Of a stretch of 64,000 bases of DNA, positions 1 through 62,606 are shown piece by piece (positions within the stretch are counted from its first letter, which is position 1; every line of letters begins with the position of its first letter). Position numbers and translations under genes: made by a program. The notes beneath the pieces are model-generated. The model ran no database searches, was not told where the DNA came from, and saw nothing but the letters and a program-made list of their open reading frames with translations. Source of the stretch: Mobula hypostoma (Eukaryota); NCBI RefSeq assembly GCF_963921235.1, contig NC_086097.1, positions 141,858,001 to 141,922,000 on the forward strand. The letters run 5' to 3'.

Positions 1-1200
1 ATGATGCCCACAAGGCAGGAGAAGGCTATAGGAAGATAGCAAAGCGGTTTCAGGTAGCCGTTTCCTCAGTTCGTAATGTAATTCAGAAATGGCAGTTAAC
101 AGGAACGGTGGAGGTCAAGTTGAGGTCTGGAAGACCAAGAAAACTTTGAGAGAACTGCTCATAGGATTGCTAGAAAGGCAAATCAAAACCCCCATTTGAC
201 TGCAAAAGACCTTCAGGAAGATTTAGCAGACTTTGGAGTGGTGGTGCACTGTTCTACTGTGCAGTGACACCTGCACAAATATGACCTTCATGGAAGAGTG
301 ATTAGAAGAAAACCTTTCCTGCTTCCTTACCACAAAATTCAGTGTCAGAAGTTTGCAGAGGAACATCTAAACAAGCCTGATGCATTTTGGAAACAAGTCC
401 TGTGGACTATGAAGTTAAAATAGAACTTTTTGGCCACAATGAGCAAAGGTACGTTTGGAGAAAAAAAGAGTGCAGAATTTCATGAAAAGAACACCTCTCC
501 AACTGTTAAGCACAGGGGTGGATCGATCATGCTTTAAGCTTGTGTTGCAGCCAGTGGCACGGGGAACATTTCACTGGTAGAGGAAAGAATGAATTCAATT
601 AAATACCAGCAAATTCTGGAAGCAAACATCACACCGTCTGTAAAAAAAAATGCTGAAGATGAAAAGAGGATGGCTTCTACAACAGGATAATGATCCTACA
701 CACACCTCAAAATCCACAATGGACTACCTCAAGAGGCGCAAGCTGAAGGTTTTGCCATGGCCCTCACAGTCTCCCAACCCAAACATCATCAAAAATCTGT
801 GGGTAGACCTCAGAAGATCAGTGTATGCAAGACGGCCCAAGAATCTCACAGAACTAGAAGCCTTTTGCCAGGAAGAATGGGTGAAAACCCCCCCAAACAA
901 GAATTGAAAGACTCTTAGCTGGCTACAGAAAGTGTTTACAAGCTGTGATACTTGCCAAAGGGGGTGTTACTAAGTACTGCCATGCAGGGTGCCCAAACTT
1001 TTGCTTTGGGCTCTTTTCCTTTTTTGTTATTTTGAAACTGTAAAAGATGGAAATAAAAAAAGTAATCTTGCTTAAAATATTAAAGAAATGTGTCATCTTT
1101 AACATTATGCCTTTTGGAAATCAGTTCATCTTTTACTCACTTAACTATTCACAGTAACAGAAATTTTGACCAGGGGTGCCCAAACTTTTGCATGCCACTG
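1..1200 (+). mobile_element. Tc1/mariner DNA transposon (IR/DR type) with frameshifted DD34E transposase; 5' part lies outside the window
   Basis: ORF 650-907 has Tc1 motifs QQDNDPTH and WPSQSPNPNIIKNLW; upstream DNA encodes GRPRK and TVKHRGGSIM in shifted frames. Ends ...CATGCCACTG|TA at 1200. The 18-bp repeat GGGTGCCCAAACTTTTGC occurs at 987-1004 and 1174-1191 (inner and outer DR). Confidence 0.93.
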
Positions 1201-1209
1201 TATGCTTGT

Positions 1210-2140
1210 AAGAGATTCTGAAGATGCTGGAAATCCAGAATAACATACAAAATGCTGGAGGAAATCATCAGGTTAGGCAGCATCTATGGAAAGGAATAAG
1301 CATTTGAGATTTTGGGCTGAGATCCTTTATCGGGACAGGAAAGGAAGGAGAGAAGCCAGAATAAGAAAATGGTGAGGGCGGGGTGGTGTTGGTGGAAGGA
1401 GTACAAGCTTCCTGTACCAGCCAAGCTTGGGCGGTACAGTAGCATAGTGGTTAGCACAATGCTTTACAGTACCAGTGACCCAGATTCAATCTCCACAGCT
1501 GCCAGTAAGGAGTTTGTGTGTTTTCTGTGTGGATTTCCTCCGGGTTCTCCAGTTTTCTCCCACATCCCAAAGACATAATGGGTGGTAGATTAATTGCTCA
1601 TTGTAAATTGTCCCATGGTTAGGCTTGGATTAAATTGGGGAATTGCTGGGCAGTGCAGCTCAAAGGGCCTACTCTGTGCTGTATCTCATTAAATAAGTGA
1701 AAGGTGACAGGTGAGTGGGAGAGAGAGGATGAAGTGAGAAGCTGGGAAGTGATGGGTGGAAAAGATAAAGGGCTGAAAAAGAATCTAATAGAAGAGGAAA
1801 GTGGACCATGGGAAAAAGGGAAGGAGGAGGGCCCCCCACGGGGAGGTGATAGGCAGGTATGGAGAAGAGGTAAGGGGGAGTCAAGTTGCGGAATGGAAGA
1901 ACAGGGAGGGGGACCTACATCTTTGTTCTCTACCCACTTGCTCTCTTATCAGATTCCTCCTCCTTTAGCCCTTTTCCTTTTCCAGCTGGCATCTTCTAGT
2001 TTATTTTCCTTCCCTTCCCCCACCACCTTAATCTGGTTTCTTTCTTACCCCATCCTTTCCAGTCCAGATTACTGGTCTCAGCCGAAAATATTGACTGTCT
2101 AAATTCCTTCCCCCAGGTGCTATCTGACCTGCATTTCTTT
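1210..2140. mobile_element. Degenerate Penelope-like terminal-repeat fragments in inverted arrangement, split by a SINE
   Basis: Minus-strand copy (ACAAAATGCTGGAGGAA...GGCAGCATCTATGG, then purine-rich tract to about 1910) followed by a plus-strand copy (about 1915-2140) with a decayed CAGTC...GAAA...GACTG motif; same family as the GIY-YIG-bearing copies at 51.8 kb and 61-62 kb. Confidence 0.65.
1427..1697 (+). mobile_element. tRNA-derived SINE (HE1/V-SINE-like) with CR1-type tail
   Basis: A-box-like TAGCATAGTGG, decayed B box, central GGATTTCCTCCGGGTTCTCCAGTTTTCTCCCACATCCCAAAGAC, 3' AAGGGCCTACTCTGTGCTGTATCT and A-rich end. Confidence 0.8.
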
Positions 2141-2651
2141 TTGTATTCTTACTGTTATGCATTACACCTAGCTTCAATGTTTATGAATCTTTTTTTCCTT
2201 CAACTTTTGCAGCAAATTTTGATGTGATCTAGTTGTCCCAGAGTGTCCAGTCTCTGCCCTGCTTCTGCATTCCCTGTGCTTACCTGCTTAATTGAATCAA
2301 GATTTTGGTTAGTTTCAGCTCTAGCAATTGTGTTGAAGAGGAGTAGGATTTTGAAAGTTGACGAGTGGTCAACTTGCTTTTAAATTTTTATCCCTGTCCG
2401 TTGTAAATTGGTATGAATTGTTTGATTCTGAAAATAGCTGTAAATGCCATCTGACCTATTCACACCATATGTTGCAAAGTTTCTCATTTGTGTAAACGGA
2501 CGTTACTTTTATTGAAGGGAAAAGTGATAGTTTGTACCAGTGAAAATTGTTAATTTAAGAAACATGATTTCAAGCACTCAAAGGTTAGCCAGCTGGGTTT
2601 TTTGTTAGAGGGAAAGGAAGTCAACGATCTGTGAGTTCCATTAGGTTAGAG

Positions 2652-2731
2652 CAGGGGTTCCCAAAGTGGGCTCCACAGGTCCCTCTGTTAATTGTAGGGT
2701 TCTATGCCATAAAAAAGGTTGGGTACCACTG
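2652..2731. mobile_element. 80-bp hAT (Charlie/Buster-like) MITE
   Basis: Termini CAGGGGTTCCCAA...TTGGGTACCACTG; 8-bp TSD GGTTAGAG/GATTAGAG; related copy at 45529. Confidence 0.8.
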
Positions 2732-2907
2732 GATTAGAGGGTAATTGAGACTGGGGGTCTTTTACCTTTACACTGATAAACAGCAGTATCAACTGCCAGT
2801 TTGTGCTATTTGTCATTCCAACAACATAATAAATGAAAATTTATAAACAAAACCACAATTGCTCAAAATTTGAAAGAAAACAAAATGCTGGAAACATCTG
2901 AGCACTG

Positions 2908-3090
2908 TTGAGTCATCACCAACTCATGGTGACCCTATGGCTAGTGTAGCTGTCCGTACGGTTTTCGTGGCAAGATATGGAAGCAAATTGCCAGGCCTTT
3001 CTTCTGATAGATAGTGCCAGTTGCGATCCACCTGGTTTGGAACCCGGGACCATCCACCTCAGAAGTTCAGTGCTGGCGACACTACAGTAT
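2908..3090 (-). mobile_element. Short tRNA-derived SINE with RTE-type 3' tail
   Basis: Minus strand reads ...GGTCCCGGGTTCCAAACC (B-box-like)...AAGGCCTGGCAATTTGCTTCC...GAAAACCGTACGG...CATAGGGTCACCATGAGTTGGTGATGACTCAA, resembling RTE/BovB-derived SINE tails. Confidence 0.6.
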
Positions 3091-3394
3091 TCTGAAATTT
3101 GTCTTCTCCAGATAGCCATGAAACAAAGAAAGAACATGAAAGTTATTCAGAGAGAAACACCCACCCCACCCCCCACACACAAAAGAGTGGCATCCTGATC
3201 ATCATGGAATAGGAATATTGACCCCTGAAAAAACAAACCCTCCCCCACCAAAAAGCTAACAGAACATCAATCCACAAACACCCTCCCCTCGCACAACAAA
3301 GCAAGAAAGGAATGAGCGATTTAAAAAAAACACAATATAAAAACCACAAGTCTGAACAACACCACACAGCAACAACAACAGTGCTTCTACTTTC

Positions 3395-4000
3395 TTAGAA
3401 ATTTGTGCAGATGTGGTATGTCTAAAACTTCGGCAAACTTCTATAGATGCACAATGGCTGACTGGTTGCATCACGGTCTGGTATGGAAACCCTAGTGCCC
3501 AAGAACAGAAAAGCCCTCAAAAAGTGGTGGATACATCATAGTCCATCACAAGCAAAGCATGCCCCACTAATGAGCACAACTACAAGGAATGCTGCTACAA
3601 GAAAGGAGCATCCATTTCTCAAAGACTCCTACCATCCAGACCATGGTCTCTTCTTGCTGCTGCCATTGGGAAGGAGAGACAGGAGCTTTAGCTCCCATGC
3701 CACGAGGTTCAGGAACAGTTATTATACTTCAATTATCGGGTTCCTGAATCATCTGAACTGATTTCATGAGCTATAGACTAACTTTCAAGGAGTGTACAAC
3801 TCATATTCACAACATTGTTTCTTTATCTATCCATCTATTTATCTTTATTACTTATTTGCAGTTTGTCTTTTGCACATTGGTCATTTGTCATTGATTATTA
3901 TTTTTTTTCTACTGTGAATGCCTGCAAGAAAATGAATCTCAAAGTAGTATATGGTGACATATACATACTTTGATAATAAATTCACTTTGAACTTGGAACT
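3395..4000 (+). mobile_element. Rex1/Babar-like LINE 3' remnant
   Basis: ORF 3483-3761 contains HPDHGLFLLLPLGRR...TRFRNSYY, typical of the Rex1/Babar RT C-terminus, followed by AATAAA and a (TTGAAC)n-like tail. Confidence 0.75.
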
Positions 4001-4102
4001 TTGAGCCCTAAACATGTCTCTGTTGTCATCTGCAAACTTACTAATCATGCTAGCTACGTGCTCATCCAAATTGTTAATATATGTGTTAAACGACAGTGTT
4101 AG

Positions 4103-5162
4103 AAGCATGAGAAATTTTGCAGATGCTGAAAATCTAAAGCAACACACAAAAAGTGTTGGAGGAACTCAACAGGTCAGACAGCATCTATGGAAATTAATAA
4201 GCAGTCGTCTTTTGGGCAGAGACCCTTCTTCAGGACCAGAACGGAAGGGGGGAAGATGCCAGAGTAAAAAGGTGAGAAGAGGGGAAAGGAGGATAGCTGG
4301 AAGGTGGAGCCAGGTGGGTAGGAAAGGTAAAGGGCTGGTGAGGAAGGAATCTGATAGAGTAGAGTAGACCAAAGGAGAAAGGGAAGAAGGAGGGGACCCA
4401 AGGGGAGGTGATTGACAGGTGAGAAGTTAAAGGCCAGAGTGGGGAATAGAAGAAGAGGGGAGTGGGAGGAAAAGTGTTTTTACCAGAGGAAGAAATTGAT
4501 ATTATGCTATCCAGTTAGAAGCTACCCAGATGGAATATAAGGTGTTGCTCCTCCATCCTAAGGGTGTCCACATCATGGCTTAAGAAGAGACCATGGACCA
4601 ACATGTCAGAACAAGAATGGGAATTAGAATTAAAGTGTTTGGCTACCAAGAAACTCCACTTTTGGTGGATGGAGCAGAGAAGTGGCCCCTCAGTTTATGA
4701 CTACTCTTACCAATGTACAGGAGACTGCATCGGGAGCACCAGACACAATAGATGACCACAGCAGATTCGCAGGTGAAGTGTTGCCTACCCTGGAAGGACT
4801 GTTTGGGGTCCTGAACGGAGGTAAGGGAGGAGCTGAATGGGCAGGTGTGGCACTTTGGCCCCTTTCAGGAATGAGTGCCGGGAGGAAGATTAATGGGGAG
4901 GGACGAATGGACGGGGGAATAACAGAGGGAGCAATCCCTGAGGAGAGAGGGAGGGGAGGTAAAGATGTGTTTGGTGGAAGGGTCCCTTTGGAGATGGTGA
5001 AAGTTGTGGAGAATGATGTGTTGGATGTGGAGGCTCATGGAGTGGTAGATAAGGACAAGAGGAACTCTTATCACTGTTTAGGCGGGAAGGCGGTGGGAAG
5101 ATGGGGTGAGCGTGGATGTTGAGGAAATGGAGGAGATGCAGGTAAGGGCAGCATCAATGATG
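4103..5162 (-). mobile_element. Penelope-like retroelement 3' fragment (RT C-terminus, GIY-YIG endonuclease remnant, terminal repeat)
   Basis: Minus ORF 4865-5074 RVPLVLIYH...IQHIILHNFHHLQRDPSTKHIF; GIY-YIG-region DNA homologous to 51990-52316; terminal repeat with decayed hammerhead motif at about 4202-4238. Confidence 0.85.
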
Positions 5163-36764: not shown

Positions 36765-37403
36765 AGTATCTTCTGGGCGGGAGGAGAGAGAGCAGCGTGC
36801 TGCACGTGCATAGCCCTCCAATGAAATATGATATTGTATCCATTAAATAGGGGCCGTGGACAATTCTGATTTGATGGAGACAGACGTGAAAGCACAGAGG
36901 AACATCTGGAGAAATTTCTGAAACACCAGTTCACTGCTGTTGTTACTGTGCGATCGGGAATCTTCCGGAGGGAAGGCCTCAAAATCCCCGGCTTTGCCTG
37001 CTGTTGGCGACCGAGATTGAGGTTGAATTGTTCGGATAGAGATGGCGCTCAGTACTCGGTGTCGGAGGGCTGATCAGAGGCTCGAAGTTTTCTGATAACT
37101 CAGAGTCGGATTGTGGTCAGGAAGGGGGAGTTTTTCTTCCTTCTCCCGTCTGCATGAGATGTGGGACATTTGAGGGGCTTTGAACTTTTTACTGTGCTCA
37201 TAGACTGTTCTTCATCAAGTTGTGGTATTGTTGCACTGTTGTAACTAAGTATATGTTATAATTATGTGGTTTTGTTAGTTTTTTCAGTCTTGGTCTGTCC
37301 TGTGTTTTGTGATATAACACCGGAGGAAATATTGTATCATTTCTTAATGCATGCATTACTAAATGACAATAAAAGAGGACTGTGTGTCTTCATAATCTAA
37401 TCT
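36765..37403 (+). mobile_element. Putative non-autonomous retroposon inserted in the provirus pol
   Basis: Non-retroviral segment in opposite orientation ending AATAAAAGAGGACTGTGTGTCTTCATAATCTAATCT; pol-like sequence lies on both sides. Confidence 0.55.
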
Positions 37404-47065: not shown

Positions 47066-47207
47066 ACACCGTCGCTTGGAGTGGAAATGGGCTGTGGAAA
47101 GGGCAGCAATTGTCAACCGCTGGACATGGTTGCAAGCTCAGGTGTCTGACCTAGAATACCGAATACGGCAGCAGACAGACATATACAGACAGATCCGTGC
47201 AAACAAG
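47066..47207 (+). CDS. KANSL1: Internal coding exon (142 bp) of KAT8 regulatory NSL complex subunit 1
   Basis: Acceptor TTTGTTCACAG| and donor AAG|GTAAGT. Translates (x)[47 protein letters not shown], matching recalled human KANSL1 [43 protein letters not shown] better than KANSL1L. The ORF-track extension past 47207 is intron. Confidence 0.93.
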
Positions 47208-49039
47208 GTAAGTGCAGAGATTGACACGGGGCCAGAAGGTGTTTTTCTGCTTAAGTGTAGGACAATGTCATCTATTTACACATCATGCACTATTAATTCA
47301 AAATTTAGAAATGTTGTAGATCAAGGGGATGTGTTGTTATTTTAGCAACGTTTTCCAACTGGGACGTTTATTTTGTTCTTTGATGACACTAATATTTTTG
47401 CACGGGAGGGATAGTAATACATTATTACATTACTTTAAATATTAAACACCTCCAATTACATTCAACTTAGTGAATTTTGTGTCTACCAGAGAAAGTATTC
47501 AGATTTAGTAACAAATGAAAGTTCAGAACTATAAAAAGAAAACCATATGCTGTTAAGTGTTTTCAGTTATTACATCATAGTAACTTTCTCGGGTATCAAA
47601 ATGATCTTAGCCTTTTTCAGTGCCAAGTTTGCATTTTGATTGCTAAAGTGGAGATAACTGGAATGAATTACAAACATTAGGGCGAATTTCTCCAATGATT
47701 TTAATCCCCATCTCAGTTTTCTATGTTAATGCAATTTGGCTTGATATTAAATCTTTGGTACTTGTAGAATAACATCTTTTCAAACTGAAGTTTTAAGTTT
47801 CAGAACTGCCTTATCAAATGCCTCCCAATGTAAAACAAAATTTAAAAATCACTTATTTCTGCTTACATAACATTCATTAAATTGCTGACCTTCACTAACT
47901 TTTGGTTTTACTTCTTCTTGACTGTATTCTCAAATATTTCCTTGGCCTAGTCCTATATCATTCCTCCAACTTATTAGTCATAGTCATACTTTATTATTGA
48001 ATGTGTTCCTTCTCTAGTTCTGCTGTTTTGGAATTGAACTTATTTGCCGTTGTGAAGGTCTGTAACATTAGAATTCTGTTTATAAATTCCTTTTCACAGT
48101 GACTTTTTCCTCTGTTAAGGCATTCTTAAATATATCATCTTGATCAAGGTGTGTATAGCTGCCTTGATATAGTATGACCTTAATTTTGACAAAATTGCTT
48201 TAAAAAAGAGCCTTGTAATAATTTAGTCTGTTAGAATTAAAATATTTTTGTTTCAAGAGCAATCATTCAGCCTTAGTACCCCTGATACCAAGATTTTTCC
48301 ATATTTAAATAATTTCCCATAATTAAATTTGTTTGTGCTTGATGTATATTATATAATGTTGCAGTTGCATTTAATCTCTGTTTACATGATCCTTTCAAAC
48401 TGGCCAATAAGTCTGTAAACCTTAAGTTACTATTTTTGTCAATTTTCATGTATTTAGCCAGCTACCTTTTGAATATATTGTTGAATCTCCCTCAATTTTT
48501 ATTCCTGATGATGCATTTCAAGCAAGAACCACTTTCTGTGTGACGAAGTATCTTCTCATCTCTGTTTAGTACCCTGCCGACAAATGTGTTTGTCTTTTCA
48601 TATTAACTCTTTAGCTTTCTTAAAAAAAGGATTTAGATATGCATAATGCTTACATGATTACCTAAATAATGGCCTAGAATTTTTCAACTACTGCAGAGGT
48701 AATGTGATTTAACTTTATTACAAAATAATGTTTTGAAGGGAATTGGAGTTTTAAGAATTCCACGAAGACTATGATAGACTTCTGTGCCTAGTGTGTTCTT
48801 ATTGTGGACATGGGGATTTGATAGGAGAAAAACATGCAGCATATGCCTAGCTGCTACTTCTGTCACTTGGATCTTGGCATGTTGTCACAGCACTCGCTTG
48901 TTTCATTTTCTCCTGTCCTACTTTTCACACCAGAGCTGAAATTATTGTTTATAGCTTTAATACAAAGAAAAGGCCTTGTCCTACAGGAATGCCTTGGTTC
49001 CTGTTTGCTCTAGAGTTTTGCCTCATGACTAAACCTCTA

Positions 49040-49701: not shown

Positions 49702-50254
49702 TGTTATGTTTTATAGCTTCAAAACGTTAAACTAATTGAAAGGAAACCAAGAGTTGGGAGATGGGTCTTGCACTTTTTTTTTACTTTAAATGAGGTGCGT
49801 ACCTATCACCATCATCACATATGCAATTCACTTATTTTTACATATAACCATAATGAATTATATAAACAAAGAATGCTTTATGAAACAATATATTTACAAG
49901 ATTACTCAAATGTTACTTAAATATTAAATACACACCATCCCTGCTTAGCTATAGACTCCAACTCAATGTAGAATCATCTCAGCTCACATACATAATAGAC
50001 AATATGATACAACTATTATATAGACTTCCACAGCATGGTAAATTTTAAATTGTCCCATTCATGCCTAAAGATTTAATTACTGTAAAAGATGCCTTATACC
50101 CATGGGATAATGCATTTTCTGATGAGGGAGGTCACTGTGCTTGGCAGGTGAGACTTGTGGCTGTGAATACAATCTCAATCCCTGGGCCTTCTCTGATGGT
50201 TGTAGGAGTTGACTCTGAGACCACAGGAAGTGGTTCTAACAGCTCTGGAAACCT

Positions 50255-50900
50255 TTCTTCTCATTTTCTCAGTTTTTCTCTCTCTGGGTTTACTTTGTTC
50301 CCTTTCTTTTCTTTCTCTCATTCCTTTTCTTTCACACCTTTCTCCTTCCAGCTCACATTCTTTATCTTTCTTCTCCCTTTTCTTTGAGTTTGTGCATCTT
50401 GATCTTGAGAAGGTCCACTTAGTTCACTGGAGTATTCTTAGTAATCCTTCCATTGCTCCTTTTCTAATCTGATCTCCCTTGGTTTCTTCATCTATAGCAT
50501 TCTCTGTTGTCATTTCTCAATTGTTTCCTTTTTGGCCTTGCATTCATCCTGCTAGGCTTGGTCTTTGCATCTATTTTTGCAAGCAGCTCTTTGTCTCCCA
50601 CTTGAAATTCATGCAATAACCTTAATGCACGCAGAGTAGATTGTGTTTATTTATACTCACAAAAGCTGAACGCATGCAACTTTCTGAAGCTTTGAACTCT
50701 TCCAGCTTAAAACCAAGCCACATTTCACAAACAACTGCCTGATTAACATATCAGAAGCTTTCTCAGATATGTTGCTCACAAAAACTATTGTGGTCGGATC
50801 ATTGCTTTCATCAGTTTCATGATTCCTCTGAGCACCATGGTCCTCCTTCGGTCCAATATGCTTTCTAACCGGAAGCGCAGCGGTTGACACACATCTGTTT
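50255..50900 (-). pseudogene. RBM25: Processed (intronless) RBM25 fragment embedded in the Gypsy element
   Basis: Minus strand gives VRKHIG...PTTIVFVSNISEKASDMLIRQLFVKCGLVLSWK, then in shifted frames AFSFCEYK*TQSTLRALRLLHEFQVGDKELLAKIDAKTK...DEETK..QIRKGAMEGLLR.YSSELSGPSQD and an RE/K-rich tract. This matches the recalled RBM25 RRM and following region; stops and frameshifts are present. Confidence 0.9.
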
Positions 50901-51821
50901 GCCCTTTGGGGAACAGTGCATGGTGTACAGCATGGAGACGGTTGTGGCATCATCCAGTACCTTAATTTACCTTTAGTTGATTCTATTGTAGGGGATGTGG
51001 CATGCAAATTGTCAATGGATATCCAATCAAGTTATAATTGTTTCAGCCAATTAGGGCCCCATAATACTGATCCTCCTGTTTTTCCCACATACAAGCCCAA
51101 CGTGGCTTGTTGGTTGCTGTAATTCATTATTATGAATGTCACTCCCAGAGTTATCTTTTCCTCAGCATATGTTCTTTGTTAGATATCTAGCCCTAAGGCT
51201 TTAGTTTAGTGTTTTTGAAATACTGTTCAAACTTGTCTTGTGGAATGACCATAATAGCTGAGTCAGTGTCCAATTCCATTTTAATTCATTTGCTGTTAAT
51301 TTTTGCTGTAAGCCGTAGTGCTTGTCTCCTGTTAGTTTTCACATTGTACGTTAATCTCAAGGCCGCCCTTTCCTGTGCCACATTCATCATTATCAGATTT
51401 TCCAGTAACGGCATGAAGATTAGTGCTCTTTTTGAAACTGCAACTTGACTTTTTATATTTTACTTTTCCCTGGGCAGTCTATTTATTTTTGTCTGTTGAA
51501 CATGCTCTTTGTATGTGTCCTACTTTTTTGTATTTTCTGCTAGATTCGCCTTTAAACCTGCGTTGGTCAGCTGTATGTGAGCCCCTGCCACAACGGTAAT
51601 GCAATTTGTTCAGCCAAGCAGACCTCCGTCTAGTTGCTGCAGATTTGTTCACACACACTTTCATTCCCGACTGCAATTCAATTGCGTCCCTCTGTTTCCG
51701 TTGAAACAGCAATTTCAACTGCTGTTTTAAATATGAGATGTGCTTCAGTTAGGAGCCACTTTTGATGCTTTCTTGTAAGGTTCTTAAAAAAAATAATAAT
51801 AAATGATCTCTCGGTGTCTCA

Positions 51822-52753
51822 CCCTCTCTCTCTGCTTTCCACAGGGATCGCTCCCTACACGACTCCCTTGTCTATTCGTTCCCCCCATCCCTCCCCACCG
51901 ATCTCCCTCCTGGCACTTATCCTTGTAAGCGGTACAAGTGCTACACATCCTCCCTCAATACCATTCAGGGCCCCAGACAGTCCTTCCAGGTGAGGCGACA
52001 CTTCACCTGTGAGTCAGCTGGAGTGACATACTGCGTCCAGTGCTCCCGTTGCGGCCTTCTATATACTGGTGAGACCCGATGCAGACTGGGAGATCGTTTC
52101 GCTGAACACCTACGCTCTGTCTGCCAGAGAAAGCAGGATCTCCCAGTGGCCACACATTTTAATTCCACGTCCCATTCCCATTCTGATATGTCTATCCACG
52201 GCCTCCTTTACTGTCAAGATGAAGCCACACTCAGGTTGGAGGAACAACACCTTATATTCTGTCTGGGTAGCCTCCAACCTGATGGCATGAACATTGACTT
52301 CTCAAACTTCCGTTAATGCCTCACCTCCCCCTTGTACCCCATCCGTTATTTATTTATTTATATACACACATTCTTTTTCTCTCTCCCCTTTTTCTCTTTC
52401 TGTCCCTCTCACTATACACCTTGCCCATCCTCTGGGCTTCCCTCCTCCCCTTCTTTCTTTCTCCCTAGGCCTCCTGTCCCATGATCCTCTCATATCCCTT
52501 TTGCCAATCAACTGTCCAGCTCTTGGCTCCATCCCTCTCCCTCCTGTCTTCTCCTATCATTTGGGATCTGTCCCTCCCCCTCCCACTTTCAAATCTCTTA
52601 CTAGGTTTTCTTTCAGTTAGTCCTGACGAAGGGTCTCGGCCCAAAACGTTGACTGTTCCTCTTCCTAGAGATGCTGCCTGACCTGCTGCATTCACCAGCA
52701 ACTTTTATGTGTGTTGCTTGAAATTCCAGCATCTGCAGATTTCCTCGTGTTTG
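51822..52753 (+). mobile_element. Penelope-like element 3' portion (GIY-YIG endonuclease and terminal repeat) inserted in Gypsy gag
   Basis: ORF 51990-52316 FTCESAGVTYCVQCSRCGLLYTGETRCRLGDRFAEHLR...EEQHLIF.LGSLQPDGMN; imperfect TSD TGATCTCTCGGTGTCTCA (51804-51821) and TGATCTCTTGGTGCTCA (52756-52772). Confidence 0.92.
52618..52655 (+). ncRNA. Minimal type I hammerhead ribozyme motif (mutated copy)
   Basis: TAGTC-CTGACGA-A-GGGT CTCG GCCC-(A)AAA-CG-T(T)-GACTG: stem I, intact CUGANGA and stem II; GAAA and the GUC cleavage triplet are altered by CpG-type transitions. Confidence 0.75.
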
Positions 52754-53158
52754 TGTGATCTCTTGGTGCTCATTACCAAGCTGCCAATACTCAGACTTCT
52801 TCAATTTATCCATGTATGCTGAGATTGACTCCCCTTCCTTTTGGTTCCACTTATGACACCTGAAGTATTTTGCAATCAACAATGGATTCAGTTCCAGATG
52901 TTCCTGCATTACTTCTACTATATCAGCAAAGCTCATTTCAGCTGGTTTGGTTAGAGCAGTTAAACTTTGAAGCTAATTGTCTGCCTTTAAACCCAATACA
53001 CTTGACAAAATTGGTACTCATTTCTCATTGGCTATTTCATTTGCTTCAAAATACTGTTCAATTAGCTCAGTATACATGAGCCAGTTACCGCAGTTGAGAG
53101 TTCAAACATGACTAATGTTTCAACATAGCCAGCCATTTCAGTTCTTTTTTAATGATTA

Positions 53159-54380
53159 CTAGAAAACAGGGTGACCTGTTGGGGCACCCTTTGAGAGAAG
53201 GGTAGTGCAGTCTGATGTGACCAGAATGAACATTAAATTTTCCAGAATGCTATTGGTATCGCTTTGCTTTGGAAACTGTGTAGAAAACCTCAGTTTATTA
53301 AAGAAGAACGACGCGTAGCAAAGCAAATATCGCTCCTCCTCGTTTAACGAAGGACACTTTTGATGGCATCATTTCTGGTTTCGCTGTCACGCTTGTGCCT
53401 CTCGTTGTCATTCTGGAGACGTGCAGTCCTTTCATCCCCCGTCTCTTCATCTCTTCTGCTGTTTGTTCTTTTTCTCTGATTCTGGAGGTGTGCATTTCTC
53501 AGCCTCTTTGTCTCTTCCTCTCTCCTCCTTCTGTGCTTGTTTTTGTCATTCTGGAGACGTGCAGCCCTTTCATTTCCCATCTCTTCTGTTTGTTTGCCTC
53601 TGATCCTGGAGATGTGCATACTTCTCCTTCTCTATCTCTTCTTCTCTCATCTTTTTTTGTCCTGACTCTTTGATCCTGGAGTCGTGCATCCCTGGCCTCA
53701 TCCGATTCTTGTCCTCTCCCTGTCCTTGCTGCTTCCCGATGATGTTTGGCATCATCTCGTGACCATAATGTCCCCCTTCCCTTCCCATGTGGCATAATTA
53801 GGCTGACTTTTTTTTTTAACCCTAGTGCTGGATAGAAGATACAAAGCAGTAACACCAAAAAGGATGCTGATTATTCTTGATGATGTGGTTGGCGCTGTCC
53901 TAAATGGACGTGATAATAGTCACCGCTGTTCTTTGACTGCAGCAAAGGGCTTTATGGGTGTCTCGAAGTACGTCATTACAATAAGATTTAATTATCTCTT
54001 ATTGATGAGTGGCAGTTTGATCTGTTCCAATCCTGCACATGCTGATGATGATTAGCAGAATGTGACCCCTCGAAATAGAGCTGCCCTGCCTTTTTGCTCC
54101 GGTAGGTGTTGCTGCTGAGGCTGGCCATGCACATGTGTCGGGCTGTGGCGTCTCGATTTCCATGATGGCCGATCAGGTCTTGGGTGAAAGCTAGCCTGTT
54201 GATTTTTGGTGAATGAGCAATTTTATACGAATATATAACCCTGAACTTTGCCTGCATTCTGTCAGTTAGCGCATTTTAATTAGATGTAGCCAAAAATAAG
54301 TGCCGCTGTAATGCAGCATTTGTGCTGATTGGAGGTCACAAACAGACAGACAGAGCATGAGAGTTTTAGTAGTATACAGA
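53159..54380 (-). mobile_element. Non-autonomous Helitron (1222 bp) with decayed N-terminal STPR-like repeat ORF
   Basis: Minus strand begins A|TCTGTATACTACTAAAA...TCTGTCTGTCTG and ends with hairpin GGGTG...CACCC then TGTTTTCTAG|T. Internal 69-nt repeats (53411, 53480, 53549) encode ET.EER.ARLQ.D-type units; ATG at 53795. Confidence 0.88.
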
Positions 54381-57300
54381 TCCCTGCAAAAGCATCATCC
54401 CAATTCACACCCGCAAGTTCTAGCCTTTTAGCCTCATAATTTGCCCTTCCCCAATTAAAAATTTTCGTGTCCTCTCTGATTCTATCCTTTTCCATGATAA
54501 TGTTAAAGCCCAGGGAGCGTTGGTCACTGTCCCCCAGATGCTCACCCACTGAGAGATCTGTGACCTGACCCGGTTCGTTACCTAATACAAGATCTAGTAT
54601 GGTATTCCCCCTAGTCAGCCTGACAACATACTGTGACAGGAATCCGTCCTGGACACACTTCGAACCATAGAAACTACAGCACAGAAACAGGCCTTTTGGC
54701 CCTTCTTGGCTGTGCCGAACCATTTTCTACCTAGTCCCACTGACCTGCCACGGACCATATCCCTCCATACACCTCCCATCCATGTATCTGTCCAATTTAT
54801 TCTTAAATGTTAAAAAAGAACCCGCATTTACCACCTCGTCTGGCAGCTCATTCCATACTCCCACCACTCTCTGTGTGAAGAAGCCCCCCCCTAATGTTCC
54901 CTTTAAACTTTTCCCCCCTCACCCTTAACCCATGTCCTCTGGTTTTTTTCTCCCCTTGCCTCAGTGGAAAAAGCCTGCTTGCATTCACTCTATATATACG
55001 CATCATAATTTTATATACCTCTATCAAATCTCCCCTCATTCTTCTACGCTCCAGGGAATAAAGTCCCAACCTATTCAACCTTTCTCTGTAACTGAGTTTC
55101 TCAAGTCCCGGCAACATCCTTGTAAACCTTCTCTGCACTCTTTCAACCTTATTTATATCCTTCCTGTAATTTGGTGACCAAAACTGAACACAATACTCCA
55201 GACTGGGCCTCACCAATGCCTTATACAACCTCATCATAACATTCCAGCTCTTATACTCAATACTTTGATTAATAAAGGCCAATGTACCAAAAGCTCTCCT
55301 TACGACCCTATCTACCTGTAACGCCACTTTTAGGGAATTTTGTATCTGTATTCCCAGATCCCTCTGTTCCACTGCACTCCTCAGTGCCTTACCATTAACC
55401 CTGTATGTTCTACCTTGGTTTGTCCTTCCAACGTGCAATATCTCACACTTGTCTGTATTAAACTCCATCTGCCATTTTTCAGCCCATTTTTCCAGCTGGT
55501 CCAAGTCCCTCTGCAGGCTCTGAAAACCTTCCTCACTGTCTACTACACCTCCAATCTTTGTATCATCAGCAAACTTGCTGATCCAATTTACCACATTATC
55601 ATCCAGATCATTGATATAGATGACAAATAACAATGGACCCAGCACTGATCCCTGTGGTACACCACTAGTCACAGGCCTCCACTCAGAGAAGCAATTCTCT
55701 ACCACCACTCTCTGGCTTCTTCCATCGAGCCAATGTCTAATCTAATTTACCACCTCTCCATGTATACCTAGCGACTGAATTTTCCTAACTAACCTCCCAT
55801 GCGGGACCTTGTCAAAGGCCTTACTGAAGTCCATGTAGACAATATCCACTGCCTTCCCTTCATCCACTTTCCTCGAAAAACTCCCAACAGATTGGTCAAA
55901 CATGACCTACCACGCACAAAGCCATGTTGACGCTCCCTAATAAGCCCCTGTCTATCCAAATGCTTGTAGATTCTGTCTCTTAGTACTCCCTTCAATAACT
56001 TACCTACTACTGACGTTAAACTCACCGGCCTATAATTTCCCGGATTACTTTTCGATCCTTTTTTAAACAACGGAACAACATGAGCCACTCTCCAATCCTC
56101 CGGCACTTCATCCGTAGACAGTGACATCTTAAATATTTCTGCCAGGGCCCCTGCAATTTCAACACTAGTCTCCTTCAAGGTCCGAGGGAACACTCTGTCA
56201 GGTCCCGGGGATTTATCCACTTTAATTTTCCTCAAGACAGCAAGAACCTCCTCCTTTTCAATCTGTACAGTTTCCATGGTCTCACTACTTGATTCCCTCA
56301 ACTCCATAGATTTCATGCTAGCTTCCTTAGTAAATACAGACGCAAAAAACCTATTTAAGATCTCCCCCATTTCCTTTGGTTCCGCACAAAGCCGACCACT
56401 CTGATCTTCAAGAGGACCAATTTTATCCCTTACAATCCTTTTGCTCTTAATATACTTGTAAAAGCTCTTTGGATTATCCTTCACTTTGACTGCCAAGGTA
56501 ACCTCATGTCTTCTTTTAGCCCTCCTGATTTCTTTCTTAAGTATTTTCTTGCACTTCTTATACTCCTCAAGCACCTGATTTACCCCCCGTTTCCTATACA
56601 TTTCATACAACTCCCTCTTCTTCTTTATCAGAGTTGCAATATCCCTTGAGAACCAAGGTTCCTTATTCTTATTCAATTTGCATTTAATCCTGACAGGAAC
56701 ATACAAACTCTGCACTCTCAAAATTTCCCCTTTGAAGGCTTCCCACCTACCAATCACATCTTTGCCAGAGAACAACCTGTCCCAATCCACGCTTTTTAGA
56801 TCCTTTCTCATTTCTTCAAATTTGGCCTTCTTCCAGTTCAGAACCTCAACCCCAGGACCAGATCTATCCTTGTCCATGATCAAATTGAAACTAATGGTGT
56901 TATGATCACTGGAACCAAAGTGCTCCCCTACACAGACTTCTGTCACTTGCCCTAATTTGTTACCTAACAGGAGATCCAATATTGCATCCCCTCTAGTTGG
57001 TCCCTCTATATATTGATTTAGAAAACTTTCCTGAACACATTTTACAAACTCTAAACCATCTTGACCCCTAACAGTATGGGAGTCCCAATCAATGTATGGA
57101 AAATTAAAATCCCCTACCACCACAACTTTATGTTTCCTGCAGTTGCCTGCTATCTCTCTGCAGATTTGCTCTTCCAAGTCTCGTTGACTATTGGGTGGTC
57201 TGTAATACAATCCCACTAATGTGGCCATACCTTTCCTGTTTCTCAGCTCCACCCATAAGGACTCAGTAGACAAGCCCCCTAATCTGTCCTGCCTGAGCAC

Positions 57301-58600
57301 TGCTGTAATATTTTCCCTAACAAGCAATGCTACTCCCCCACCTTTCATTCCTCTGCCTCGATCACATCTGAAACATCGGAACCCTGGAATATTAAGCTGC
57401 CAATCCTGCTCCTCCTGTAGCCAAGTTTCACTAATTGCTACAACATCATAATTCCACGTGTCAGTCCACGCCCTCAACTCATCTGCCTTCCCCGCAATAC
57501 TCCTAGCATTGAAATATATACACCTCAGAAGATTTTTACCACCACTCACAACCTTTCTATCAGCAGATTTGCTTAAACTTGCAACATCATTTATTTTCAC
57601 CCCATCCACACTGTCAGCTCTGGCACTCTGGTTCCCATCACCCTGCAAATTTAGTTTAAAGCCTCCCCAATAGCACTAACAAACCTCCCTGAAAGGATAT
57701 TGGTCCCCCTGTGGTTCAAGTGTAACCCATCTCTCTTGTACAGGTCCCACCTGCCCCAGAAGAGGTCCCAATGATCCTGAAATCTGAAACCCTGCCCCCT
57801 ACACCAGTTCCTCAGCCACTTGTTCCTCCTCCAGAGCATCCTATTCCTACCCTCACTGGCACCTAGCACAGGTAGCAATCCTGAGATTACCACCCTTGAG
57901 GTTCTGCTTTTCAACTTCCTACCAAGCTCTCTATACTCACTGTCCAGGACCTCTTCACTCTTCCTTGCTATGTCATTGGTACCAATGTGCACCACGACAT
58001 CTGGCTGGTCACCCTCCCACTTCAGAATGTCATGCAATCGATCAGAAACTTAACAAACTCTGCCTCGTCTAAACCATTGGAACTAATCAGGTGCCAATCA
58101 ATATTAGGGAAGTTAAAGTCACCCATGATAACAACCCTGTTATTTTTGCACCTTTCCAAAATCTGCCTCCCAATCTTCCCCTCTGTATCTCTGCTGCTAC
58201 CACGGGGCCTATAGAATACTCCCAACAGAGTAACTGCTCCCTTCCTGTTCCTGACTTCTACCCATACTGACTCAAAAGAGGATCCTGCTACATTACCCAC
58301 CCTTTCTGTAGCTGTAATAGTATCCCTGACCAGTAATGCTACCCCTTCCCCCCTTCCCTCCATCCCTTTTAAAGCACTGAAATCCAGGAATATTGAGAAT
58401 CCATTCCTGCCCTGGTGCCAGCCAAGTCTCTGCATCATAATTCCATGTATGTATCGAAGTTCTCAGTTCATCACCTTTGTTCCTGATGCTTCTTGCATTG
58501 AAATAATGCACTTTTGCCTTTCTAGCGTACTACCTTTACACCCTTTATTCTGTTTCTCTTTCCTCAAAGCCTCTTTATATGTTAGATCTGGCTTTACTCC
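54381..58600 (-). mobile_element. Older CR1 (endonuclease region) split by the young CR1; pieces 58047-58600 and 54381-54661
   Basis: ORF 58022-58438 ends ...GDFNFPNIDW...DEAEFVK and ORF 54280-54723 resumes CVQDGFLSQYV; ACTT occurs at both junctions. Confidence 0.85.
54662..58046 (-). mobile_element. Young CR1 LINE: ORF1 SGNH-esterase C-terminus and nearly full ORF2 (APE and RT) with a frameshift near 55870
   Basis: VVVHIGTNDI...DGLHLN (esterase); YFNARSI, ISETWL, GDFNFP, SSDHN (APE); RT motifs SGVPQGSVLGP and KFADDTK; 3' UTR nearly identical to the 26408-28818 copy. Confidence 0.96.
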
Positions 58601-60349
58601 ATGCTCTCCTCTGTGCCCCGTTATTTTGCCTTCTCCCCATAACCTTTCACACCTATCAACCTTAGCCTTAAATATACCTTCACAGCCACCCATGGCAACA
58701 AATTTTGTGGATTCATCACCCTCTGGCTAAAGAAATTCCTCCTCATCTAAATGGATGTCCTGTATTCTGAGGTTGTTCTCTCTGGTGCTAGACTCCCTCA
58801 GTATAGGAAACATCCTCTCCATACCCGCTCTATCTCGGCCTTTCAACATTCGATTGGTTTCAATGAATCCACTCCTCCCTTCATTCTTCTAAATTCTGAC
58901 GAGTACAGGCTCAGTGACATCTGTTGTGCATTTAATATTTCAGTAATATCTGAGTAATCTTGTAAATATGTTGTTTCATTTAGCAATGAAATATAAAAGC
59001 CAGCAGCCACAAACCAGCACTTTGAATGAATATAATAGAAAATATGAATTTGTGAAGGTGGAAAATATTGAAAAGTTGAACAGTGTTTACACAATGTAAT
59101 CCTGGAGAAATGAGGCAAGATTATTTCTTCATCCAGATGGTTGAAAAATATTTAAAAGCAAATATACAGATTGATAAAATGAAAGAGAATTAAACAATAC
59201 TTACAGCAAGTTAGCAAAGGTTTGATGACTTGAATGCACCATTTTCAGGGATCTACAAATTAAATAATATTCCTACTCTTATGTCTAGCCTTCGGTTTCT
59301 TTTTCTTCTCTGCATTCTTTGCTCCAGCTGTTTTGATATTTTGTTTGGAATGCAAGTAATCGGTCCTGTTGGTGTTTCCAAAAGTCCCTTCTTCCCATTT
59401 AAAAAAAAAATAGGCTTTCTCAGTGTAAGACTAGTACAGGACAATCATCCTTTATGATGCTGTTAGCCAATTGACAGAGGCTGAGTCCTTAGCCTGGATT
59501 TAGCAGTCATGGAAAGACTACAAAATAAACTTAGTTTGTAGTAGTTCTCCCAGTGGGAATGTGGAAATAGATGGAGAATTATCAAAGTGAGGCTCAACCC
59601 CAACCCACAGCAACAAACATTCAAGGGAAGTTTTTGCAGTACTGTTGAGCTGCAGTAGCAGCTGTCAGCTGTCTCATATATGGATAGCTCATCTTGTTAG
59701 GGGTGTTGTTTGGCTGGCTGTCAGTGAACTGCCAGAAGGAGGGAAAGGGGAGAGGTCAGAATCTAAAAGGATTATCATTTAAGTAGGGAATTGAGAATTT
59801 CACTTTGGAGGGTTGTGAGTATGAACGGGAGGCAGTGAATAGAGCAAGTCTCATTGCGTATAAGTGTCACTGTGAAAGATTGAGAGTTAGAGCGAGTTCT
59901 GTGTGAGAACTGGAAAATTTGAAAAGAGCAAGTCTTGTTAATGAGTTTCACTGGGGCCAATAAAAAGAAGTTAGGCTTAAGTGGAGTGGTCATTGTTGGA
60001 GTGGAAGCAGAGATGCATTTTGGGTATGTTTCCTTCTCTTTATCATTGTTTGAGTTTCACTTGCATAAATCGGGACTTGGACCAAAGATAGAACTGAAAA
60101 GAGTTGAGTTTCACTTACAGGAACTTAGAGTAAAGTCAGCTAGCTTTTAGTTAATAGGTGATTGGCTAATTTGCTAAATATTAGCAGCCAGTAAAAAGAA
60201 ACTGGGGCAAGTGGAGTGGCCATCTTGAGAGGGGTTGTTTTCTAGTCAAAATGCTGCAGGTTGTCAAAGTGCGGACTTTGGTGTAAAGGGGAAACAACAC
60301 TAGTTAAGGTAAGGGTCTCCTTTTTCTCTCAAAGCGCTTTTAGACAATG

Positions 60350-60830: not shown

Positions 60831-61182
60831 AATGTTGACATGAAAATTGCGATAATCATGGATTAGTTCTTTGACTAAATCCCTGTGCAGACTGGGGTCA
60901 ATCAAGTTCTCTGCTATTGCACCTTCCCTCTTGATCTTTATTGTGCATTCTTGCCTGTTGGCTCTAATATGGTTCCCTCTCAAGGCTGTTAATTTGCATT
61001 TTGATTCTGAAAATTGTCAACCTTTGCAACATCAGAATCAGAATTACTCCAACTTTAAGTAATTGCCTCTGTACTATTCCAATGTGTTCTTGTAGCTACA
61101 CTCCAATCCAGGCATATCCTGGTTAACCTCTTTCCTCATTCCCCCTGTAATGCACCAACCAAAAGTATACAATTCTCCCAAG

Positions 61183-62606
61183 CAACACACACAAAATGCT
61201 GGTGGAATGCAGCAGGCCAGGCAGCATCTATAGGAAGAAGTACAGTTGATGTTTCAGGTTGAAACCCTTCATCAAGACTCATGGAAAAAAGAAATAGAGA
61301 TTTGAAAGTGGAAGGGGGAGGGATGAAGCGAAGAGCTGGGAAGTTGATTGGCAAAAGGGATACAAGGCTGGAGAAGGGGGAGTATCATGGGACAGAAGGC
61401 CTTGGAAGAAAGGAAGAGCGAGGGGAACACCAAAGGAAGATGGAGAACAGGCAAGGAGTTATTGTGAGAGGGAAAGAGAGAAAAAAAAATTAGGGGTGGG
61501 GTAAGAAGGGGAGGTGGGGCATTAACGGAAGTTAGAGAAGTCAATGTTCATGCCATCAGGTTGGAGGCTGCCCAGATGGACTATAAGGTGTTATTCCTCC
61601 AACCTGAGTGTGGCTTCATATTGACAGTAGAGGAGGCCATGGATTGACATATCGGAATGGGAATGGGATGTGGAATTAAAATGTGTGGCCACTGGGAGAT
61701 CCTGCTTCCTCTGGCGGACAGAGCGTAGGTGTTCGGCAAAGCAGTGTCTCAATCTGCGTCGGGTCTCACCAATATATAGAAAGCCACACTGGGAGCACCG
61801 GGCACAGTATATCACACCAGCAGACTCACAGGTGAAGTGTTGCCTCACCCGGAAGGACTGTCTGGGGCCCTGAATGGTGGTGAGGGAGTAAGTGTAAGGG
61901 CAGGTGTAGCACTTGTTCTGCTTACAAGGATAAGTGCCAGGAGGGAGATCGGTGGACGGCAGATTGGGAGACCGCTTCACTGAACACTTATGCTCTGTCT
62001 GCCAGAGGAAGCAGGATCTCCCAGTGGCCACACATTTTAATTCCACGTCCCATTCCCATTCTGATATGTCAATCCATGGCTTCCTCTACTGTCAAGATGA
62101 AGCCACACTCAGGCTGGAGGAACAACACCTTGTATTCCATCTGGGTAGCCTCCAACCTGATAGCATAAACATTGATTTCTCTAACTTCCATTAATGCCCC
62201 TCCTCCCCTTCATATCTCATCCCTATTTTTTTCTCTCTCTCCCTCTCACAATAACTCCTTGCCTGTTCTCCATTTTCCTCTGGTGCTCCCCTCCCTCTTT
62301 CTTTCTTCCAAGGCCTTCTGTCCCATGATACTCCCCCTTCTCCAGCCTTGTATCCCTTTTGCCAGCTCTTCCCAGCTCTTGGCTTCATCCCTCCCCCTCC
62401 TGTCTTCTCCTATCATTTTGGGTCCCCCACCCCCTCCCATTTTCAAATCTCTTGCTGTCTCTTTTTTCCGTGAATCCTGACCAAGGGTCTCGACCCGAAA
62501 CGTCGACTGTGCTTCTTCCTACAGATGCTGCCTGGCCTGCTGTGTTCCACCAGCATTTTGTGTGTGTTGCTTGAATTTCCAGCATCTGCAGATTTTCTCG
62601 TGTTTG
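61183..62606. mobile_element. Penelope-like insertion with inverted architecture (minus arm to about 61955, plus arm about 61956-62606) inside a CR1 remnant
   Basis: Both arms encode the GIY-YIG C-terminal region (ORFs 61591-62046 minus with IYC...YIGET, 61934-62194 plus); 13-bp direct repeat CAATTCTCCCAAG at 61170-61182 and 62607-62619; CR1 LQLYITFVRPHLG continues across the site. Confidence 0.92.
62472..62509 (+). ncRNA. Minimal type I hammerhead ribozyme motif (G8 mutated)
   Basis: GAATC-CTGAC(C)A-A-GGGT CTCG ACCC-GAAA-CG-TC-GACTG: perfect stem II, intact GAAA, palindromic ACGT stem III and GUC site; CUGANGA altered to CUGACCA. Confidence 0.78.

Follow-up and report, generated by a model that had tools for sequence, protein, structure and literature searches.

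A dispersed Ty3/Gypsy family that carries spliced RBM25 sequence in place of most of pol

General features of the Gypsy copy in the window

The window, a stretch of 64,000 nt, covers positions 141,858,001-141,922,000 of contig C1 in a genome of 3.48 Gb. A Ty3/Gypsy LTR retrotransposon copy was identified on its minus strand, with gag, protease, an RBM25 piece, an integrase tail, a polypurine tract (PPT) and an LTR in this order. A first-pass annotation had proposed the same arrangement, and sequence, translation and alignments all bear it out. The 3' LTR (49702..49937, minus strand; 236 bp, TG...CA) aligns end to end with both LTRs of the two-LTR copies L058 and L053. The PPT (about 49938..49949, minus strand) was recognized from its sequence and occupies the same place 5' of the 3' LTR in other copies. 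The integrase C-terminal tail and 3' UTR of the parent Gypsy (49950..50262, minus strand) were delimited by parent copies, which match from 50262 on. The spliced RBM25 fragment (50254..50949, minus strand) comprises the end of exon 3, a cassette exon X, exons 4-7 (encoding the RRM), a piece of exon 9 and the start of exon 10. Translation identified the decayed 3' part of gag and the aspartic protease (50950..51783, minus strand), which are 70-80% identical to parent copies that continue into reverse transcriptase (RT). We take a stretch near 51600 to be a zinc-knuckle remnant and one near 51285-51240 to be the protease motif. The end of the 5' UTR and the 5' part of gag (52768..53158, minus strand; ATG at 53136) were assigned by translation and by comparison with other copies.

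This copy is dead and truncated. The 5' LTR, the primer binding site (PBS) and most of the 5' UTR are missing, and a separate Helitron-like repeat (53159..54381, minus strand) stands in their place, adjoining the truncated 5' end. The copy carries two later insertions and has internally lost exon 8 and most of exon 9, and its RBM25 fragment contains frameshifts and stops, the former as originally annotated. A repeat of roughly 980 bp within gag (51784..52767, plus strand), missing from other copies, had been overlooked. This later insertion in gag is presumably a Penelope-like repeat fragment; it shows a weak GIY-YIG match (E 0.012, below the cut-off), and its repeat occurs again at 61179-62606, where two related, presumably Penelope-like fragments lie in inverted arrangement.

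A protein search with 50657-50905 returned 46 matches, the best of which is RBM25 (E 5e-20). All named proteins among the 46 are RBM25, RBM25-like or RRM proteins, and the rest have placeholder names. A PDB search gave weak RRM matches only (E 0.44 or higher).

Several other features were found in the window. An internal exon of a KANSL1-like gene lies at 47067-47210 (plus strand) and is the only exon found in the window; its best protein matches are in rays, which points to a batoid source, and an Atlas search with it gave no usable match. The Gypsy element is antisense to this gene, 2.5 kb past the exon, and likely lies in the intron that follows it. A fragment of pol from the parent Gypsy family, 72% identical to parent copy L137, is present at 36845-37403 (minus strand). 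A 64-bp 5' fragment at 58922-58985 (plus strand) belongs to the same LTR family as the element. It was considered as the missing 5' LTR and rejected, being a short piece in opposite orientation with no PBS or gag after it. A 628-aa open frame at 55789-57675 (minus strand), better preserved than the Gypsy copy, is presumably a CR1-type LINE encoding an endonuclease and the start of an RT. The Helitron-like repeat is 1.22 kb long and non-autonomous, with 2,434 first-look candidates. It was found at 39 further places with 84-90% identity, mostly with the same two ends; most of the 19 copies viewed start with TC and end with a hairpin and CTAG, and the repeat holds internal repeats of roughly 55-70 nt.

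Host RBM25 gene and the captured isoform

A C-terminal protein query located the host RBM25 gene at 99.79-99.84 Mb of the same contig, 42 Mb from the window, and found that gene only, with no free-standing RBM25 retrocopy. A PWI family search for the host gene was set aside, as none of its three matches aligned to RBM25 proteins. The window piece matches host exons X, 4, 5, 6, 7, part of 9 and the start of 10 (numbered here with our own labels) in order and at 80-90% identity, with the exon junctions spanned and the introns gone. The piece had been described as about 650 bp of intron-free RBM25 sequence beginning at the RRM. Its intron-free nature and its inclusion of the RRM stand; its length is 696 bp, and it starts farther upstream, with the last 10 nt of exon 3 and the cassette exon.

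Exon X (50939-50895, minus strand, in the window copy) was recognized by its match to the host, where it forms an in-frame cassette of 48 nt bounded by AG and GT. The gar and frog proteins P0021 and P0013 lack it, and shark protein P0001 has it at its start. The copies share one 5' junction. The fragment starts 5-11 nt upstream of exon X in all 30 loci compared; for 26 loci the start is -10, a position at the end of exon 3. By-eye counts at that start gave ACT, as in host exon 3, in 21/30 loci and the parent's GCA in 0/30.

Exon 8 and a larger part of exon 9 survive in copies such as L004, L016, L022 and L175, which shows that the original capture extended from exon 3 into exon 10, a length of about 1,070 nt. 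Among the 54 copies in which both junctions were measured, inserts range from 473 to 1,038 nt, and exon 8, the middle of exon 9 and the exon 9/10 join are missing in 29.

The joint in the chimera is 3-X, which means that the captured isoform included exon X and skipped a 30-nt micro-exon, Y. Exon Y is an in-frame exon between exons 3 and X of host RBM25 (about 99,837,474-99,837,503, minus strand; L208:8575-8604). Joints 3-Y, Y-X, Y-4 and X-4 occur in contigs of a presumed-RNA run that bears the same organism label as the best-matching runs, and joints 3-Y and Y-4 occur in another organism. The 3-X joint without Y was not among the joints listed in the presumed-RNA contigs.

Replacement of pol and the two junctions

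The parent copies align with the window as far as 50943 and once more from 50262, and four of them have 3.0-3.15 kb of their own sequence between these points. RNase H followed by integrase was identified in parents L133 and L137 (RT_RNaseH before rve; Pfam, 4 of 9 ORFs matched), and the RT of the parent copies was read from translation, with no Pfam match. The RT-RNase H-integrase stretch of a parent copy has no match inside the window element, in agreement with the annotated absence of RT, RNase H and the integrase core. The RBM25 piece thus replaces about 3.1 kb encoding these three enzymes rather than interrupting pol. An exact motif search retrieved 384 loci in which the pre-junction sequence does not lead into exon X. 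Most of the 30 fetched from these run on into RT-like sequence, and two are mutated chimeras. In the parent-type copies L078, L091 and L100, no more than about 1 kb separates the protease from the integrase tail, and the match begins at the 3' junction of the chimera; these copies are possibly other internally deleted derivatives.

Both breakpoints, mapped against the Gypsy parents, fall on words shared by donor and recipient. At the 5' switch point the 7-nt word TGCCACA (50943..50949, minus strand) occurs both in the pol linker of the parent and at the point where host exon 3 ends. The 9-nt word GAGAAGAAA (50254..50262, minus strand), common to host exon 10 and the parent integrase tail, forms the 3' switch point; it is the purine-rich join already pointed out in the first-pass annotation. 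In random breakpoint pairs, 7 or more shared nt occur at a frequency of 6e-4 and 9 or more at 5e-5. The gag-protease frame is in frame with RBM25 at the 5' join, and RBM25 is out of frame with the integrase tail at the 3' join in the copies viewed by eye. The insert is co-oriented with the element, with no poly(A) tail and no internal target site duplication (TSD) around it, as had been noted from the letters. The proposal of LTR-mediated transduction instead of a LINE-made retrocopy is upheld by the replaced pol, the microhomology at both breakpoints and an end inside exon 10.

Copy number and dispersal of the chimera

The chimera has transposed as a non-autonomous element to many dispersed loci. 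A total of 157 exact chimeric-motif occurrences were retrieved genome-wide (backwards control, 0), and chimeras account for about 29% of the motif-bearing copies (157/541). A 706-nt query gave 2,848 candidates, and all 40 that were scored matched. Recapture was calculated from 114 copies found independently on fully listed contigs, 8 of which were among the motif matches. It puts the total at about 2,200 chimeras (1,200-5,100), a figure based on 8 recaptures that likely errs low because both samples favour well-preserved copies. The RBM25 match is present in 59 of 60 extended loci, and Gypsy flanks were seen in all 30 first-fetched loci.

The termini of the family were read from other copies, as the window copy has a 3' LTR alone. 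These carry pairs of LTRs of about 245 bp (TG...CA), with a conserved word starting with TGG, a candidate PBS, after the 5' LTR, and homology between copies stops at the LTR ends. Both termini were called in 24 extended loci. The 5-bp TSDs match at 4 or 5 of 5 nt in 13 of these 24 two-LTR copies (shuffled mean 1.3, maximum 8 in 20,000) and poorly in the other 11. This result comes from other copies, the window copy having lost its 5' end. The five perfect TSDs all differ from one another. The suggestion of a possible non-autonomous family was therefore an understatement: a genome-wide search for the chimeric junctions returns many loci with TSDs that differ between them.

Multiplication by segmental duplication or Helitron transduction has a negligible probability: a Helitron-like repeat adjoins the window copy, and L003 and L008, alike at both junctions, may be a duplicated pair, but homology stops at the LTR ends and TSDs differ per locus. 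Helitron transduction of the Gypsy element was rejected, since the Helitron-like repeat ends at the same point in its other copies, which lack Gypsy sequence.

Age of the family

All copies are old, differing by about 11% from the column majority. Across 73 copies, identity is 86% to host RBM25 and 89% to the column majority. LTR pairs have a median K2P divergence of 0.25 (20 of 24 pairs; the four with K above 0.5, likely misaligned by inserts, were left out). Genome-sized runs of two other organisms, X17 and X18, whose RBM25 introns differ from those of the window genome by about 3-7%, contain many diverged contigs with the X-exon 4 joint. Judged on this joint by itself, the family therefore likely predates the split from those organisms.

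Fate of the RBM25 fragment

Decay of the RBM25 part is neutral, and nothing indicates that the captured piece was preserved for its protein. In 74 copies, the RBM25 frame gives an N/S of 1.01 (0.92-1.11), which does not differ from off-frame controls, and the RRM gives 0.99. A naive pN/pS of 0.8 was a transition artefact that became 1.01 once stratified by substitution type. The copies radiate nearly star-like in this part. Only 10 excess-frequency variants are present, 2 of them synonymous with 2.0 expected, and with so few shared variants the selection test is weak for the founder lineage. Spread of the RRM for its function, implied by the original description, thus finds no support in these ratios.

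Apart from one split CpG-type column, the gag-pro-RBM25 frame of the column yardstick is open. The yardstick differs from the host at 31 columns, of which 24 are synonymous; the other seven comprise four split columns (three of them near-ties), two at a deletion join and one that agrees with the shark protein. Since these differences are mostly synonymous, the founder probably carried a near-intact RBM25 piece and spread soon after capture. The best 150 of 5,555 protein-level candidates contain no young or clearly preserved copy. These 150 are 64-85% identical to shark RBM25, and 13 of them have no stop within the match but are 70-80% identical.

A benefit of the cargo was considered as an alternative to passive carriage. 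It is unlikely that an RRM-bearing element gained a replicative edge, through an in-frame Gag-protease-RBM25 fusion or an RNA signal, that produced thousands of copies, themselves a possible source of small RNAs directed against the RBM25 mRNA of the host. The simpler proposal that the cargo aided spread, as a Gag-protease-RRM fusion or as an RNA signal for packaging, export or escape from silencing, is also quite unlikely. The in-frame 5' junction and the nearly open yardstick frame favour it; an in-frame join is a one-in-three chance, and the ratios and variant counts above, like the lack of a preserved copy among the best 150, speak against it. Almost every copy that extends to the tail retains exons X to 7 (insert mostly 550 nt or more), and loss of exons 8-9 is frequent, but purine-rich repeats explain this loss and retention of exons 4-7 is partly built into the queries used. 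The share of chimeras among motif-bearing copies is also in keeping with a benefit. We regard the RBM25 piece as most probably a passenger.

gag-protease variation and recombination with helpers

A different pattern was observed upstream of the insert. The 5' half of gag has an N/S of 0.73 (0.62-0.87) and the protease region one of 0.98, as measured in 36 chimeras whose gag-pro is uninterrupted. Near-fixed differences between chimeras and parents number 0-1 per region, the two groups are interleaved on trees, and parent-type copies also carry 21 of the 54 high-frequency gag-pro variants (background, 1%). Four-gamete violations affect 279 of 1,128 site pairs, with weak decay of linkage disequilibrium with distance. 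The 33 gag-pro variants unshared with the sampled parents are mildly biased to synonymous changes (14/33, p 0.02). Repeated recombination with co-packaged helper RNAs is suggested as the simplest reading of the gag variation and fits mobilization in trans; selection on the chimera's own Gag is possible.

Origin of the chimera

The window element is very probably a dead copy, truncated at its 5' end, from a non-autonomous Ty3/Gypsy family whose RT, RNase H and most of the integrase were replaced by a spliced RBM25 fragment. The family likely arose by one capture through two template switches and was then likely copied in trans by parent enzymes. Under this scheme, an RBM25 mRNA of the isoform with exons 3-X-4 and without Y would have been taken up into a virus-like particle in germ-line cells. 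At GAGAAGAAA, RT would have switched from the integrase tail to RBM25 exon 10; it would then have copied the mRNA in the upstream direction as far as the end of exon 3 and, at TGCCACA, switched back to the element. The product would have kept both LTRs, the PBS, the PPT, gag and protease, making packaging and integration by helpers possible. During the subsequent spread, purine-rich RBM25 stretches would have been lost by nested deletions, and gag-pro segments were likely swapped with helper RNAs.

An origin at the DNA level, in which a genomic Gypsy copy underwent microhomology-mediated repair or gene conversion with an RBM25 cDNA or retrocopy and then transposed, is very unlikely. Microhomology at both ends fits it equally, and repair with cDNA leaves identical junctions. 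A donor retrocopy is nonetheless not seen with the C-terminal query, the RBM25 match is missing in just 1 of 60 extended loci and Gypsy flanks were present at all 30, and the fragment shares the orientation of the element and is cut short at either end, like the retrocopies described by Tan et al. (2016, PMC5131818). Insertion of a LINE-made processed pseudogene into a Gypsy copy with later deletion of pol is extremely improbable: presumed CR1-type LINEs are plentiful in the window, but the piece stops inside exon 10 without 3' UTR, poly(A) or TSD, both its ends lie on words common with the parent, and about 3.1 kb of pol is gone exactly between them.

Comparison with known systems and significance

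Transducing retroviruses with gag-onc fusions are helper-dependent and carry spliced host mRNA in place of pol with an in-frame 5' fusion. The RBM25 family resembles them in all these respects, its helper dependence being the likely one, but differs in that no env, evidence of infection or selection on the captured ORF was seen. Pack-MULEs, Pack-TIRs and gene-capturing Helitrons are DNA transposons that mostly take genomic fragments. They share with the RBM25 family the non-autonomous amplification of a host gene fragment, whereas the latter captured a spliced mRNA. The poly(A), own TSD and intact mRNA 3' end of LINE-made pseudogenes are absent from the RBM25 piece, and purifying selection and an intact copy, as in functional retrogenes, were not found in the copies analyzed.

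The closest counterparts are the LTR-mediated retrocopies of animals described by Tan et al. (2016, Genome Res, PMC5131818). In these, a partial intron-free mRNA replaces internal ORFs, both LTRs are kept, switch points show microsimilarity (median 6 bp) and neither poly(A) nor a TSD accompanies the insert. That study proposed that such chimeras can go on to spread as non-autonomous elements, and it documents only a few sites. The RBM25 family agrees with these retrocopies in its intron-free partial mRNA, ORF replacement, microsimilarity (7 and 9 nt) and further retroposition; it differs in comprising one capture with an estimated ~2,000 copies, nested deletion subfamilies and signs of helper recombination. 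Maize Bs1 and other gene-transducing LTR elements of plants likewise hold sense-oriented host genes acquired by retrovirus-like transduction, and a plant review describes transduced ORFs in one or a few copies (PMC7264820). Unlike Bs1, which combines pieces of several genes, the RBM25 family carries one gene at very high copy in a vertebrate. The literature searched, by title or abstract start for comparable cases, yielded no paper on RBM25 in LTR/gypsy elements or shark retrocopies and no comparable high-copy vertebrate case; Repbase or Dfam may already catalogue the family.

The capture mechanism is already known (Tan et al., 2016), and the scale is unusual. The family stands out for that scale, for the preserved isoform and for the signs of helper recombination. 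A fragment of one essential gene became a repeat family of thousands by LTR-mediated capture, very probably in the manner set out above, at a scale far above the published cases compared. The family will be a source of error in gene annotation and in the mapping of RBM25 reads for these genomes. It is also a fossil of an ancestral germ-line RBM25 isoform, and its shared junctions would offer many markers for ray phylogeny. Finally, it provides a natural test of how a helper-dependent element recombines with its helpers, and of whether silencing of such a family by the genome also endangers the donor gene.
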